From the IMG/VR virus record IMGVR_UViG_2534681762_000010: 45,749 nucleotides of DNA; one strand, 5' to 3'. The DNA is from a virus (lineage: Duplodnaviria; Heunggongvirae; Uroviricota; Caudoviricetes). The stretch's first letter is position 1, and each line of letters begins with the position of its first letter. This document shows positions 29,884 through 44,673 of this stretch, piece by piece. The translations under genes and the position numbers were made by a program. The notes under the pieces were generated by a model. The model was given only the letters and a program-made list of their open reading frames with translations, did not search any database and had not been told where the DNA came from.

Positions 29884-30154
29884 AATGTTACCGTAATATG
29901 TGAGTATCCATCGACTAGACACTAAGCAAAAAAGCTCCCGAAGGAGCCTTCATTTTCACTTTCTTAAATCTAACGACAGATGGCTAACATTTAAGTATTG
30001 TGAAATATTATCAAATGTAATCATCATTGATTTACAAAAGATACATTTTGCCCCGAAAGGATTTCTGTCAGAAACATCAAAAGATGATGTTCTATACTGA
30101 GAACCATGGCAACACGGGCATCTGAAGTGAATATGGTTTGTAATATTTTCTACC

Positions 30155-30367
30155 TCAAAGTGCCACTACATGAACAGCTGCAGGGCCTTTAGGTCCGTTC
30201 TCAATACCAAATTCGACTTCCTGATTCTCAGTTAACGTTTTGAAATCGTTGCTCTGAATAGCTGAGAAATGCACAAACACATCTTTGCTACCATCTTTCG
30301 GCGTGATGAAACCAAAACCTTTTTCAGGGTTAAACCATTTCACTAAACCAGTCATTTTGTTAGACAT
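30155..30367 (-). CDS. cspI: cold-shock protein (CspI/CspB-like)
   Basis: [23 protein letters not shown]... with RNP motifs; long AT-rich 5' UTR upstream. Confidence 0.75.
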
Positions 30368-30730
30368 CATTATTACCTTTTGAAGAAGTTAGCCCTTGGG
30401 CAGAATGGTCCGAAAAAAAATATCAGAGAGAAAAACCAACAAGGAAATCTCAAGAGGTACAAATAATAAAATTATAACAATGACTGCTTCAGATAATTTT
30501 GTAACAAACCAGAACACCATTAACGCATGATTAACCAACCATAGCAAGGATTACTTTTGTAAAGAAAAACACACGAATGAAACAATAGCTTTATTTATTA
30601 ATAAAACGTGTCATTCTGTCTAATGACCTTTTATCTTACCCTTAAGATTTCAAGGATTTTGACTCATGGAAGAGTCCTTTTTATTTAAATTTCACATTCA
30701 GCGCTAAAAATAATCCGATTTAATATTAAT

Positions 30731-33571: not shown

Positions 33572-34045
33572 ACAGCGAATCAGATCAAATAAAACGCACA
33601 TTTGTTAACATTTACACAAAGTCTGCGTGGGATATTCTGAAAGAATATCCATAATGTGGAGAGAATCTATTGAAGTGCATGGTGCCGGGTGCCTCCCGGT
33701 GAATTCAGTACCAGCACCTGAATCCGCGATTATCCCATATACCTACTCGCTGATTGCCCCTCCGCACAGGGGGATTCACCATGCCAGTTTCTTTTAACAA
33801 ACTCCCCGCAAACCAGAGAACAGTCAACCGCCTGAATTGTGAAGTATTTAAAAATTTCTCCCGCTAACTGATACCCGGCTAACAGTCTGGCGTTTTCTTT
33901 TTCAGCAACGGGAAAGCAACAACCACCACACCCGCCACCAGCACACCGTCAGCCAGCACTGACATTATCCGGCTGCTGCAATGCCATTCACAAAAACAGT
34001 AAGCAATCACTTTTTACCGTAACAGGTGATAATCCAGATATGTAT

Positions 34046-34509: not shown

Positions 34510-34586
34510 TGGCGCGCTGTACTGGATTCGAACCAGTGACCGATTGCTTAGAAGGCAATTGCTCTGTCCGGCTGAGCTAACAACGC
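34510..34586 (-). tRNA. tRNA-Arg (anticodon UCU)
   Basis: GCGTTGTTAGCTCAGCCGGACAGAGCAATTGCCTTCTAAGCAATCGGTCACTGGTTCGAATCCAGTACAGCGCGCCA folds as cloverleaf; anticodon loop CTTCTAA; 3' CCA encoded. Confidence 0.9.
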
Positions 34587-34686: not shown

Positions 34687-34762
34687 TGGTGGCCCTTGCT
34701 GGATTTGAACCAGCGACCTGGCGATTATGAGTCGCTCGCTCTCACCACTGAGCTAAAGGGCC
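34687..34762 (-). tRNA. tRNA with anticodon CAU, most like tRNA-Ile2 (lysidine type; ileX/ileZ-like), alternatively tRNA-Met
   Basis: GGCCCTTTAGCTCAGTGGTGAGAGCGAGCGACTCATAATCGCCAGGTCGCTGGTTCAAATCCAGCAAGGGCCACCA; close to E. coli ileX. Confidence 0.9.
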
Positions 34763-37898: not shown

Positions 37899-38054
37899 TT
37901 ACTCCTCAGGTTCGTAGACTGTGAAGACAGCGACCTCCGTCTGGCCGGTTCGGATTCGTACCTCGCAGAGGTCTTTCCTCGTTACCAGTGCCGTCACTAT
38001 GACGGTTAAACAGATGACGATCAGGGCGATTAACATCGCCTTTTGCTGCTTCAT
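37899..38054 (-). CDS. hokD: Hok-family type I toxin (HokD/RelF-like); in-frame upstream extension to 38111 is mok-like
   Basis: MKQQKAMLIALIVICLTVIVTALVTRKDLCEVRIRTGQTEVAVFTVYEPEE; AAGGAG SD. Confidence 0.85.
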   Translation of the reverse strand: MKQQKAMLIALIVICLTVIVTALVTRKDLCEVRIRTGQTEVAVFTVYEPEE

Positions 38055-38640
38055 AGCCTGCTTCTCCTTGCCTTTCGGCACGTAAGAGGCTAACCTAGAT
38101 TTGCCGTTCATAGATTGAGCCTCAGATTAATGTTAAGCGTCTTGCAGGACGCGTAATGTTAACTGGGGCTTTTCTCTATCTGCCTTTGGTGTTCATGCCT
38201 GAGACAGATAGCCTCAAGCACCCGCAGCCATTCTACTTAACTCCCGTCACCTGGCCAATATAAAATCAATCAGAAAGGCGATCCATAAGAACAACAGCAA
38301 GACAATAAATTGCCATTACAGCTGCAATAGCCAGCGCACATTTGAGAACCAGCACGACAACCTCCTGTATTGGACGTACACCAGTCCTGATAAATATGAG
38401 GCTCTCTCATCATTGATGAGATACAACTATTGGGTATAGTTTCTGTGATTTTGTTCTGTAGAAATGGAACACAACAACCAGTAACCACCAGCGATTCTTT
38501 AAATACGCCAAATCCGACGCAAGCTAACCTTCTAGTCCGCTTTGGGCGAAGACCGGACGTTCGATAGGTGTGAACTAGTAACTTTAAAAACATTTAATTA
38601 CCAGTAAAAAAACAAGAATATACTATCACTTTTCCAATTT

Positions 38641-41344: not shown

Positions 41345-41770
41345 TTAGTGCATCACCACAGCATTCCCTGCCGGGCCGCCGCGATTCATCTGGTCATACA
41401 AAACAACCGCTGACGCAACAAAATCATCGACATCCTTCACCAGCCGATCCCTCCGTTCGACGATCTCACGGTAATATTCAGAACTGTGGCTGCGCATACG
41501 GGCCACCAGCAAAGGCGGCATCGCCTTTTCGATCGCCGGTAACAGAGCCTGCATTTTTTCAACAGCATCAGGGGTGTCTTTATCCAGCCAACGGAAAATT
41601 TTCTGGGTATTACGGGCCAGGGCTTCCGGATGGCTGTCGTCGTACAGTTCAGGGAACGTCATCCCCAGTTCGAAATAAGTCCGGGCTATTTCAGCTGCAG
41701 GAACTTTCTCACCATCAGGGTATGCCCAGGCATTCATCGCCATGCGGATGTGCTCATGTTTGATTTTCAT
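41345..41770 (-). CDS. YdaT-like protein (Rac-type early-right gene)
   Basis: 141 aa, MKIKHEHIRMAMNAW...; occupies the cII position after the Cro-like gene. Confidence 0.55.
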   Translation of the reverse strand: MKIKHEHIRMAMNAWAYPDGEKVPAAEIARTYFELGMTFPELYDDSHPEALARNTQKIFRWLDKDTPDAVEKMQALLPAIEKAMPPLLVARMRSHSSEYYREIVERRDRLVKDVDDFVASAVVLYDQMNRGGPAGNAVVMH

Positions 41771-42077
41771 GAATCATTTGCCTCTTGATGCTTCGGGTAT
41801 GATCGTTTTCGTCATTTGGTTGCTTCATCGACATATTCTGCGAATAACATGACGAGCGTCGTAAGTATGTCCAATCAACATCAGGACGAAGTTCTTCACA
41901 CAGGACACCACCTTTTGTTGCTCGTTCAATCGCAGGACATCTCTCAGCAGGTAACTGACGTACACCTTTGATCCATTGATTTACGCTTGGAGGAGATACA
42001 CCTAAAAGCCTAGCCATTGCTGATTGCCCACCGACAACAGCACAAGCTCGTTTGAATGAATAGTTATCTTTTTTCAT
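41754..42077 (-). CDS. Cro-like HTH regulator (YdaS-like)
   Basis: HTH AMARLLGVSPPSVNQW; ATG 42077 with GGAG SD; divergent from repressor gene. Confidence 0.65.
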   Translation of the reverse strand: MKKDNYSFKRACAVVGGQSAMARLLGVSPPSVNQWIKGVRQLPAERCPAIERATKGGVLCEELRPDVDWTYLRRSSCYSQNMSMKQPNDENDHTRSIKRQMIHENQT

Positions 42078-42104
42078 CGAATGAACTCCAAAAAACACGC
42101 AACA

Positions 42105-42173
42105 ATATTAGGCTTAGCCTAATGAAATTGTCAATAGGCTATGCCTAATACATCGAGAGTAGGGATTGCCTAA
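42105..42173 (+). promoter_or_regulatory. right operator/promoter region: three dyad operators plus pR
   Basis: TTAGGCTTAGCCTAA (42108-42122), ATAGGCTATGCCTAA (42134-42148), GTAGGGATTGCCTAA (42159-42173), centres about 25 bp apart; minus-strand TTGACA (42129-42134) - 18 bp - TAATAT (42105-42110). Confidence 0.6.
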
Positions 42174-42201
42174 CGCGATGCGCATAGGAGACTATTAAGC
42201 A

Positions 42202-42678
42202 ATGCTTAGTGGTAAAGACTTAGGCCGAGCGATAGAGCAGGCCATTAACAAAAAAATTGCATCAGGAGCCGTCAAATCAAAGGCGGAAATCGCACGTCAT
42301 TTCAAAGTCCAACCACCATCAATCCATGACTGGATTAAGAAAGGTTCGATAAGTAAAGACAAACTTCCAGAACTATGGCGTTTCTTTTCTGATGTGGTTG
42401 GTCCAGAGCATTGGGGGCTTAACGAATACCCCATACCAACCCCATCCACTTCAGATACAAAAAGTGAACTTTTAGACATAAACAGCCTTTATCAAGCCGC
42501 CTCTGATGAAAAAAGAGCAATTGTGGCTTTCATCTTATCTGGAAATGCTACGGAGCCTAGTTGGGTTGATCATGACGTTCGCGCCTACATTGCCGCAATG
42601 GAAATGAAGGTAGCTAACTATCTGAAAAATCAAGAATCAAAACGGAAAAGCCAGAACATCACCAAGACAGGAACTTAA
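42202..42678 (+). CDS. prophage repressor (XRE-family HTH, RacR-like)
   Basis: 158 aa, HTH KAEIARHFKVQPPSIHDWIKKG; flanked by operator clusters on both sides; AGGAG SD. Confidence 0.75.
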   Translation: MLSGKDLGRAIEQAINKKIASGAVKSKAEIARHFKVQPPSIHDWIKKGSISKDKLPELWRFFSDVVGPEHWGLNEYPIPTPSTSDTKSELLDINSLYQAASDEKRAIVAFILSGNATEPSWVDHDVRAYIAAMEMKVANYLKNQESKRKSQNITKTGT

Positions 42679-42771
42679 ACTTATATGGCCCGACGGGAAA
42701 TTCCTAGTTCCCGTTAGTTAACTCCTACTACCTCTCCCACAAACCATCACCTATTAGGTTGCGCCCAAATT

Positions 42772-42815
42772 ATTAGGAATAGCCTATTGACAAGTAATTA
42801 GGCATTTCCTATAGT
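42772..42815 (+). promoter_or_regulatory. pL-like early-left promoter with overlapping operators
   Basis: TTGACA (42787-42792) - 17 bp - TATAGT (42810-42815); operator-like TTAGGAATAGCCTA and TTAGGCATTTCCTA overlap it. Confidence 0.6.
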
Positions 42816-42996
42816 TTTCCCATACCAACCCATCCCGTCCCACACAATACAGGGCAATACCTCGAGTTACCAGGCAGTGGTCAGGGGTTAAGTAGCCAGC
42901 CCGAGGCGTAAGAACATGACGGCAGGGTTCAACTTTAATAACTATGCAGCAGGTTTTTGTTCCGCTACCCCGGCGTTAAGGGGAAATGAGGTCAGC

Positions 42997-43149
42997 ATGG
43001 ATACTATCGAGCTTGGCAACAACGAATCTCTGGTATGCGGCGTGTTTCCCAACCAGGACGGCACGTTTACCGCGATGACATATACCAGAAGCAAAACGTT
43101 TAAAACTGAAGCTGGCGCGCGTCGCTGGTTAACCAGAAACACTGACTGA
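42997..43149 (+). CDS. YdfA/YdaG-family small protein
   Basis: MDTIELGNNESLVCGVFPNQDGTFTAMTYTRSKTFKTEAGARRWLTRNTD; GAGG SD; first gene of early-left operon. Confidence 0.5.
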   Translation: MDTIELGNNESLVCGVFPNQDGTFTAMTYTRSKTFKTEAGARRWLTRNTD

Positions 43150-43160
43150 TGAGGTTGACG

Positions 43161-43481
43161 ATGGAATTTAAAGATTTACCAGTACCATTCCAGGAAATGG
43201 CATCGAATGTGGTTCGCTCTCAACTGGCGACTCTTGACCTGAGTACCGTAGAAAAAGAAACCATCGACAATATATCCGGTAACGTACGCCGAGCCTTTAT
43301 CGGGCTGTACGAAGAGAAGCAGCTCTCTGATAACCAGGATTTACATGAAAAATACTTCCTGGATCTAATGGACATCATTGATAAGGGGTTTGGCTTGTTA
43401 ATGAAAAAGAAAGGGATTCGAATAGAACCCCTTGAAAATTACTTTGCAACAAAAAGCATTAATTCTTTTGATTCAAAATAA
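43161..43481 (+). CDS. hypothetical acidic protein (AT-rich gene)
   Basis: 106 aa from ATG 43161 with GAGG SD. Confidence 0.4.
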   Translation: MEFKDLPVPFQEMASNVVRSQLATLDLSTVEKETIDNISGNVRRAFIGLYEEKQLSDNQDLHEKYFLDLMDIIDKGFGLLMKKKGIRIEPLENYFATKSINSFDSK

Positions 43482-43734
43482 GAGAATTAATTACAGACTT
43501 AACATGCTCTTTCTCATGATTGAAGCTCTCATGATTGAAAGTGCCGGGTTGAAGCGAGTCGATATAATCAACAAGACTCTGTCGTACGACTTCATTTTTA
43601 TCCATAACAGATGCAAGAAATGAAATTGCTAAAAGAGTTATATCACTACGCGCCGCAGCATGTTGCAATGCTTTATCAAAATTATTAATCTGGCGTATCA
43701 GGGAGTTAATGATTTCATCATTTTCAGTCGACAT
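43459..43734 (-). CDS. hypothetical protein, convergent with and overlapping the preceding gene
   Basis: 91 aa from ATG 43734 with strong AGGAGGG SD; AT-rich. Confidence 0.45.
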   Translation of the reverse strand: MSTENDEIINSLIRQINNFDKALQHAAARSDITLLAISFLASVMDKNEVVRQSLVDYIDSLQPGTFNHESFNHEKEHVKSVINSLILNQKN

Positions 43735-44069
43735 TTCACCCTCCTGAGGGTTGGTGATTAAGGAGTTCTCCACGGGTGAGGTGGAGTGCGTGCGCCGGAC
43801 ACGGGTGAGCATCCGGCACTGACAGTTTACTGAAAGGATATTTCCCTGAAAAGTCAGACCATAACGCGAAAGCGCACGGCGAGGTAGCTGGTTCATAGAT
43901 AGCCTGTCGTTAAATTTTCGTCGACCGTGCGCTTCCGGTTGTGGCAATCCGCGAAATGGCGCGGCGGTAAGTATGGCGGGGTTATTCCTTCCCCCGTTGA
44001 GGACACCGGGTTGTCAGGTTGACCATACGCTTAAGTGACAACCCCGCTGCAACGCCCTCTGTTATCAAT

Positions 44070-44122
44070 TTTCTGGTGACGTTTGGCGGTATCAGTTTTA
44101 CTCCGTGACTGCTCTGCCGCCC
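44070..44122 (+). ncRNA. dicF: DicF small RNA (ftsZ translation inhibitor)
   Basis: TTTCTGGTGACGTTTGGCGGTATCAGTTTTACTCCGTGACTGCTCTGCCGCCC followed by TTTTT, matching the 53-nt DicF sequence as I recall it; located just upstream of dicB as in Qin. Confidence 0.7.
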
Positions 44123-44296: not shown

Positions 44297-44485
44297 ATGG
44301 AAACGTTATTACCAAACGTTAATACGTCTGAAGGTTGTTTTGAAATTGGTGTCAATATCAGTAACCCTGTATTTACTGAAGATGCCATTAACAAGAGAAA
44401 ACACGAACGGGAGCTATTAAATAAAATATGCATTCTTTCAATGCTGGCCCGTTTACGTCCGATACAAAAAGGATGCTGGCAATGA
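44297..44485 (+). CDS. dicB: DicB-like cell-division inhibitor
   Basis: 62 aa METLLPNVNTSEGCFEIGVNISNPVFTEDAINKRKHERELLNKICILSMLARLRPIQKGCWQ; GAGGA SD. Confidence 0.7.
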   Translation: METLLPNVNTSEGCFEIGVNISNPVFTEDAINKRKHERELLNKICILSMLARLRPIQKGCWQ

Positions 44486-44673
44486 ATACAGCATTTGCAC
44501 TTGTTCTGACAGTTTTTCTTGTTTCCGGAGAGCCAGTTGATATTGCAGTCAGTGTTCACAGGACAATGCAGGAGTGTGTGACTGCAGCAACCGAACAGAA
44601 AATTCCCGGTAACTGTTACCCGGTCGATAAAGTTATTCACCAGGATAATAACGAAATCCCGGCAGGTCTTTAA
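44482..44673 (+). CDS. ydfD: YdfD-like small secreted/membrane lysis protein
   Basis: 63 aa MNTAFALVLTVFLVSGEPVD...; AAGGA SD; directly follows dicB as in Qin. Confidence 0.6.
   Translation: MNTAFALVLTVFLVSGEPVDIAVSVHRTMQECVTAATEQKIPGNCYPVDKVIHQDNNEIPAGL

Follow-up and report, generated by a model that had tools for sequence, protein, structure and literature searches.

A Rac-type prophage immunity region with candidate RacR operators on both sides of the repressor gene

Two clusters of the same inverted repeat lie at positions 42105–42815 of a viral sequence, one on each side of a single repressor gene, and raise the question of which protein acts on them and what each cluster controls. The sequence analyzed, here called the window, is the whole stretch of 45,749 nucleotides of the record IMGVR_UViG_2534681762_000010. 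We conclude that the region very probably serves as the immunity cassette of a lambdoid prophage of the Rac family, with the repressor RacR acting on the dyads of a right operator (OR) and a left operator (OL).

The gene between the clusters (racR, 42202–42678, + strand) encodes a prophage repressor of 158 residues. The protein scores 246.3 bits against the NCBIfam equivalog NF049929 (cut-off 200), and all 158 residues align with K-12 RacR at 91% identity, identifying it as a RacR orthologue. No Pfam domain at E ≤ 0.01, no PHROG match, and no PDB relative by sequence is found for it, so an S24 peptidase domain, as in the lambda CI and LexA-type family, is not detectable. In the absence of this domain, RacR is predicted to work like CI at its operators without being a member of the CI family, and its induction presumably does not take the route of RecA-stimulated autocleavage. 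RacR belongs to the small set of transcription factors that K-12 cannot do without, a requirement that has been ascribed to ydaS and ydaT alone. The racR region occurs in 1085 of 5426 complete E. coli genomes (about a fifth), and RacR in 1 of 50,697 deposited phage genome records. The protein is thus frequent in E. coli (~20%) yet belongs to no Pfam or PHROG family and has no PDB relative.

Divergent from racR is an operon of Rac type that encodes a Cro-like and a CII-like protein, bearing out the RacR/YdaS/YdaT-type regulator set named in an earlier note on this DNA. The Cro-like helix-turn-helix gene (ydaS, 41754–42077, − strand) matches PF15943 (3.8e-30), P22_Cro (1e-8), and phrog_35, and its product is 85% identical to K-12 YdaS. 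The CII-like activator gene (ydaT, 41345–41770, − strand) matches PF06254 (2.8e-10) and phrog_163 (CII-like, 2e-47), but its product is merely 31% identical to K-12 YdaT. The YdaT-box (TTGATTTTCATGAATCAT, 41760–41777) holds the ydaT ATG within its spacer. As expected of a Rac-type region, the box on the opposite strand reads ATGATTCATGAAAATCAA, exactly as in the footprinted K-12 box (PMC11879457). Since the box is identical and the proteins share 31% identity, the two strongly diverged YdaT proteins appear to use one box, in agreement with the reported cross-reactivity of YdaT (PMC11879457). The left junction of the mosaic with K-12 Rac is located at the ydaT start, within 41747–41777.

To describe the repeats quantitatively, we scan the whole 45.7-kb window for TTAGGNNNNNCCTAA (TTAGG-N5-CCTAA) with at most one mismatch and compare the counts with those of 100 dinucleotide-preserving shuffles. 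Six dyads are found in the window against 0.76 expected, and none of the 100 shuffles reaches six; the core TAGG-N5-CCTA is found five times against 0.23 expected. All six dyads flank racR, three at 42108–42173 and three at 42754–42812. The upstream dyads are centered at 42115, 42141, and 42166, giving steps of 26 and 25 bp, and the downstream dyads at 42761, 42780, and 42805, giving steps of 19 and 25 bp. The half-site TTAGGC is additionally present at 42220, in the region of the upstream cluster. The earlier note had described three evenly spaced upstream dyads about 25 bp apart and two dyads downstream. The spacing is as it claimed and its five sites stand, but its total does not: OL3 and a weak fourth upstream site (OR4) were overlooked, and the count is four plus three.

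We also examine 46 distinct dyad sites for bias at positions that are not used in site selection. A is present at position 0 in 41 of the 46, C at position 6 in 33, and G at position 10 in 39, whereas the three central bases are free to vary. The bias reproduces the published monomer motif ATTAGGC.

A consensus promoter scan of 41700–43200 returns exactly two sites, PydaS and PL, and each is covered by one of the clusters. PydaS, the equivalent of PR, reads TTGACA-18-TAATAT (10/12; 42134–42105, − strand). The perfect dyad OR1 (TTAGGCTTAGCCTAA, 42108–42122), whose half-sites are those of K-12 Rac, overlaps the −10 element (TAATAT), and the left arm of OR2 (ATAGGCTATGCCTAA, 42134–42148) abuts and overlaps the −35 element (TTGACA). 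OR3 (GTAGGGATTGCCTAA, 42159–42173) is recognized both by the motif scan and by the K-12 alignment, and every distant RacR locus that retains the motif has an equivalent site (ATAGGAATTGCCTAA). OR4 (TTAAGCAATGCTTAG, 42195–42209) is a weak dyad with three mismatches, centered on the racR ATG. It corresponds to the published K-12 Rac operator 'O3', over the leaderless racR promoter, and its counterpart in distant homologues matches better (TTAGGCAATGCTTAA). The racR–ydaS region thus carries the inverted repeats (A/T)TAGGC-N3-GCCTA(A/T) on PydaS and on the racR start, as in Rac.

The upstream arrangement has been studied in K-12. The 123-bp racR–ydaS spacer of K-12 contains three variant GCCTAA/TTAGGC repeats, and K-12 RacR yields three RacR–DNA complexes in EMSA, ChIP enrichment, and repression of a GFP reporter (Krishnamurthi et al. 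2017, PMC5700373). The Mruk laboratory mapped and mutated PydaS (TTGACA/TAATAT), reported three racR promoters, one of them leaderless, and obtained DNase I footprints of RacR with the monomer motif ATTAGGC (PMC9638921). In the same work, the operators O1–O3 are given as (T/A)TAGGC-N3-GCCTA(T/A), with O3 over the racR ATG, and the OR1 region is protected at the lowest protein concentration (PMC9638921). Later work from this laboratory describes four inverted repeats and, by size-exclusion chromatography, RacR octamers (PMC11014345). The intergenic region is bound by YdaS too, and by YdaT also according to PMC11879457, so operator occupancy is not RacR's alone.

The racR–ydaS spacer of the window aligns with that of K-12 Rac at 94% identity. 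In the three strong OR dyads, 36 of 36 half-site bases agree with K-12 Rac, compared with 5 of 9 central and 31 of 42 inter-site bases; an alignment with Rac was among the checks proposed in the earlier note. The PydaS hexamers are the same as those of the primer-extension-mapped and mutagenized K-12 promoter. The upstream cluster is an operator type already characterized experimentally in K-12 Rac and is not new. Binding of RacR at OR and repression of ydaS, both demonstrated for the K-12 protein, would apply here by orthology.

The downstream dyads lie ~75–135 bp 3′ of the racR stop codon, at a promoter directed away from racR. This PL-equivalent promoter (TTGACA-17-TATAGT, 11/12; 42787–42815, + strand) had been proposed earlier with dyads on top of it, and the promoter scan and the dyad coordinates agree with the proposal. 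OL1 (TTAGGCATTTCCTAT, 42798–42812) occupies the promoter spacer and extends into the −10 element (TATAGT). The last base of OL2 (TTAGGAATAGCCTAT, 42773–42787) is the first T of the −35 element (TTGACA); this dyad has A at position 6, where most alleles carry C. OL3 (TTAGGTTGCGCCCAA, 42754–42768) is a degenerate dyad upstream of the −35 element and is present at no more than one mismatch in 65 of 79 viral contigs. The sequence block said to be common to both promoters is confirmed: the 13-mer AGCCTATTGACAA occurs in the window exactly twice (0 expected), at 42128–42140 on the − strand and at 42781–42793 on the + strand, which are the positions of the two promoters.

Read in the direction of transcription, both promoters follow the template ATTAGGC-N3-GCCTAT-TGACA-N4-6-ATTAGGC-N3-GCCTAA-TAT, in which one dyad abuts the −35 element and its neighbor takes up the spacer and provides the initial bases of the −10 element. 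The template holds in the window, in K-12 Rac, in Proteus mirabilis, Achromobacter, and Mixta, and in one Pseudomonadota MAG. In these non-Escherichia relatives, the identity of RacR falls to 57–64% or the match is limited to the N-terminal domain, and the promoter–operator geometry persists from genus to genus within diverging flanks. The second dyad pair of Achromobacter is 1.9–2.6 kb away, indicating that the position is variable and the design constant. No second pair is found within the 3 kb examined for Klebsiella, a Nitrosomonas MAG, and an Aeromonas MAG.

The same OL1/OL2–PL block, CCTATTAGGTTACGCTCAAAACATTAGGCATAGCCTATTGACAATCAATTAGGCATTACCTATAGT, is present 3′ of racR in K-12 Rac (NC_000913.3, 1419626–1419668). 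Immediately 3′ of the racR stop codon, the window and K-12 agree at 65% of positions; from OL3 to the −10 element the figure is 89%, and 33 of 36 OL half-site bases are identical. In a sample of 80 IMG/VR viral contigs with a RacR 91–100% identical, the three OR dyads are present in all 80, and two or three OL dyads are present in all 79 that have enough flank. Allelic variation in these RacR-bearing contigs is almost confined to the central bases of the dyads.

Because the downstream cluster is conserved in K-12, in the viral contigs, and across genera, and because it shares its template with the ydaS promoter, it is best read as the putative OL/PL of the RacR switch, to which RacR would bind and from which ydfA–dicF–dicB–ydfD would be driven. 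A second cluster of the same dyad on an outward promoter, at the far side of the repressor gene, is the lambda-type arrangement. In agreement with the OR/OL layout suggested earlier, both clusters share the operator-on-promoter design; the switch has an ordinary lambda-style layout and involves no new principle. No description of downstream RacR sites is found in the Rac literature searched (e.g. PMC6765115, PMC5917428, PMC12482147), some older work being outside the reach of the search, nor in PMC5700373, PMC9638921, PMC11014345, PMC11879457, and bioRxiv 2026.09.06.749655. The downstream cluster is thus apparently undescribed, yet it is expected from the precedents of lambda, Qin, and CP-933P.

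Downstream of PL, a conserved untranslated leader with a C-rich 5′ part (42823–42996, + strand) begins where the homology with prophages carrying other repressors begins. The first gene of the operon is a ydfA-like gene (DUF1391; 42997–43149, + strand), recognized by its domain match and annotated in a 99.9%-identical record. A 106-residue ORF on the + strand lies between this gene and the DicF sRNA (44071–44122, + strand; RF00039, 76.7 bits; gathering score 48). The cell-division inhibitor gene dicB (44297–44485, + strand; domain and family matches) and a ydfD-like gene (DUF1482; 44482–44673, + strand; domain match) follow, both also supported by the 99.9%-identical record. The order ydfA…dicF–dicB–ydfD on the + strand downstream of the repressor is that of the dicBp-type operon of Qin. 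Past the end of the window, the 99.9%-identical genome has exonuclease, xis, and int genes adjoining ompW. Between PL and the end of ydfD, the scan reveals no other promoter-like site and no intrinsic terminator on the + strand, so that dicF and dicB are probably transcribed from PL here. Rho could be loaded on the C-rich leader, in which case transcripts from PL may miss dicF–dicB without antitermination. An ORF of 145 residues on the opposite strand (43459–43896, − strand), between the ydfA region and dicF, occupies the position of sieB in K-12 Rac; it has no Pfam, NCBIfam, or PHROG match.

The homology with K-12 Rac sets in at the ydaT start (41747) and ends at about 42984; over 41747–42984 the DNA is 86.6% identical. 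The homology with prophages carrying other repressors starts at ~42821–42823, after the −10 element, and runs through the leader, ydfA, dicF, dicB, and ydfD. In those prophages, the same leader and operon are preceded by an unrelated 139-residue protein or by a LexA-family CI. A third such prophage, K-12 Qin with its repressor DicA, shares them from ~42959 only, as is seen in the second alignment that the earlier note had called for. In place of the DicA-type repressor and DicC of Qin, the window has RacR and a YdaS-type Cro-like gene. Judging from the homology limits at ydaT and at the PL start, ydaS–OR–racR–OL/PL is an exchangeable immunity module, bounded by these two points.

To place the cargo, we consider the 51 viral contigs in which racR is followed by at least 2.2 kb of sequence. 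In at least 42 of them, ydfA is accompanied by dicF and/or dicB, and kilR is found in only 4. The cargo arrangement of K-12 Rac is therefore the minority one among RacR-bearing viral contigs, and the combination that the earlier note had called mosaic is truly so but ordinary: at least 42 of the 51 share it, and mosaicism is the normal condition of lambdoid phages. Of the 5426 complete E. coli genomes, 74 contain the exact stretch from racR to ydfD at ≥80% coverage.

We propose that RacR dimers would recognize a dyad of 15–17 bp, (A)TTAGGC-N3-GCCTAA(T). Dimers on OR1 and OR2, over the −10 and −35 elements, would occlude the strong promoter PydaS, and RacR on OR4, over the racR start and the leaderless promoter, would lead to autoregulation of racR. 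On the left side, RacR is predicted to bind OL1 and OL2 and to occlude the strong leftward promoter PL, which would drive the leader, ydfA, dicF, dicB, and ydfD, and then the exonuclease, xis, and int genes. RacR may bind cooperatively, possibly with an OL–OR loop of about 0.69 kb around racR; both are plausible in view of the spacing of 25–26 bp and of the octamer reported for RacR.

A more specific form of the proposal is that the downstream cluster is a working half of the switch, in which RacR represses PL directly and octamers bridge OL and OR in a ~0.69-kb loop round racR. This full version is put forward tentatively, with somewhat less than even confidence. Support for RacR acting at PL comes from published transcriptomes, in which depletion or antagonism of RacR derepresses the leftward Rac genes (ydaG, ydaF, kilR, ydaE, racC, recE/T, and xis/int) together with ydaS/T, some of them 40–70-fold. 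The classical zygotic induction of the rac recombination functions is likewise counted in support of RacR at PL. If this version is true, RacR at PL would restrain cell-division inhibitors (dicF/dicB here, kilR in K-12) together with recET/xis/int. Bridging of OL and OR would explain both the octamerization of RacR and the derepression of the whole Rac left arm upon its loss, and the loop would be a case of lambda-style long-range cooperativity and autoregulation by a repressor unrelated to CI. A second, equally conserved promoter under RacR control would give a direct, testable account of why kilR, recET, and the excision genes are derepressed on RacR depletion, and RacR is predicted to hold DicF and DicB in check in many strains. 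The significance is that of a modest extension of a well-understood kind of switch.

Three other explanations of the repeats are considered. One is that only the upstream cluster operates and the downstream cluster is an inert relic of duplication, or a looping anchor, that controls no promoter. The downstream sites are known from sequence alone in every allele, OL3 is degenerate, and three distant relatives have no detectable downstream pair within 3 kb, all of which would suit such a relic. However, the pair sits on a near-consensus promoter in the same geometry as at PydaS, and this geometry is kept across genera in diverging flanks. In addition, the pair is intact in 79 of 79 viral contigs with the changes confined to central bases, and the genes downstream are derepressed when K-12 loses RacR. 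We therefore consider an inert or merely anchoring cluster unlikely.

Still less likely is that the dyads serve mainly YdaS or another helix-turn-helix protein, such as the controller (C) protein of a restriction–modification system, rather than RacR. YdaS represses its own expression and reportedly competes with RacR for the operators, and the C.Csp231I box, CTAAG-N5-CTTAG, resembles the dyad, with weak C protein binding in the racR region. However, K-12 RacR gives footprints and EMSA complexes on these repeats at ≤50 nM, compared with ≥1.3 µM for the C protein, whose binding is a weak off-target effect, and no restriction–modification system is seen adjoining the region. Sharing of sites by a repressor and a Cro protein is the norm in lambda, so a role of YdaS complements the main explanation. 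That the repeats are a chance or compositional feature is hardly credible. The half-site is short, and nothing else favors this explanation; the sixfold occurrence, reached in no shuffle against 0.76 expected, and the placement of the six sites in two clusters around one gene, kept across genera, contradict it.

Compared with K-12 Rac, the window has in effect the same cassette, including the downstream OL1/OL2–PL block. RacR and YdaS are 91% and 85% identical, and the OR half-sites, PydaS hexamers, and YdaT-box are identical; the YdaT protein, at 31%, differs. The cargo differs as well, being ydaG–ydaF–sieB–kilR–ydaE–racC in K-12 Rac and ydfA–(ORFs)–dicF–dicB–ydfD in the window. Published work on K-12 Rac concerns the operators of the racR–ydaS intergenic region only.

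As in lambda, the repressor gene lies between two multipartite operators of the same dyad, each on an outward early promoter, and the counterparts of cro and cII diverge from the repressor gene. A leaderless repressor mRNA and repressor octamers are further common features, both known from the K-12 RacR orthologue. Adjacent operators are spaced by 23–24 bp in lambda and by 25–26 bp in the window. Unlike the lambda repressor, RacR has no S24/LexA-type autocleavage domain and is unrelated to CI in sequence. In addition, there are four OR sites here, the distance between OL and OR is ~0.69 kb compared with ~2.4 kb in lambda, and the leftward operon of the window has no N gene at its head.

The PaaR2/YdaS/YdaT region of CP-933P from E. 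coli O157:H7 has the same gene order and YdaS/YdaT-type partners (PMC8630535). It contains OR1–3 and OL1–3/PL933P, with identical −35 and −10 elements in PL and PR, similar operators, and an octameric repressor (PMC8630535). It differs in the repressor, PaaR2, in operator repeats of the GTTTAGTAA type, and in a toxin–antitoxin pair that is co-transcribed with PaaR2. Qin (dicA–dicC/dicBp–ydfABC–dicF–dicB–ydfDE) has homologous cargo, namely ydfA, DicF, DicB, and YdfD, and a homologous part of the leader. Qin also has a repressor-controlled PL-like promoter directly 3′ of the repressor gene and three operators on each side. However, its repressor is DicA, a P22 C2-like XRE protein with its own operators, and ydfB/ydfC of Qin are replaced in the window by the 106-residue ORF and the opposite-strand ORF.

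The leader itself (42823–42996, ~175 nt) is unannotated and widespread. Of 5426 complete E. coli genomes, 3691 contain it at ≥80% coverage, as do 11 phage records, and an Actinobacillus phage carries it at 77% identity. Prophages whose repressors belong to three or four unrelated types have this leader in common, and their homology sets in where transcription is predicted to start. Its C-rich 5′ part is G-poor and thus rut-like. The leader has no Rfam match even at E ≤ 1, and its predicted fold is not more stable than those of shuffles (z = +1.19). Its CACA-rich 5′ end led us to consider the EHEC anti-sRNA AgvB, but such sRNAs map 3′ of PR′ in the late region; the Pas-sRNA preprint makes no mention of the leader locus. 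Identity with 'trac', the Rho-dependent terminator of Rac, is also rejected, as trac lies inside racR on the PRM transcript. Immediately 5′ of the ydfA Shine–Dalgarno sequence is a hairpin, CCCC-GGCGTTAA-GGGG (42968–42983), which is conserved with its flanks in five of five aligned leaders, K-12 Qin included. The upstream ATG-initiated frames differ among the five leaders, indicating that the hairpin is conserved at the nucleotide level.

One further match to the cassette is a 5.2-kb contig binned as 'Candidatus Nanosynbacter' (JARKOR010000130.1), which holds an E. coli Rac immunity region resembling that of K-12, with all five strong dyads; the assignment is probably binning contamination. 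Elsewhere in the window, Rfam matches are obtained for a sok antitoxin RNA (38049–38223, − strand) adjoining a hok-like ORF, for STnc100 (33623–33813, − strand), and for a cspA-type thermoregulator (30094–30525, − strand). Two tRNAs are located at 34513–34586 and 34690–34762, both on the − strand.
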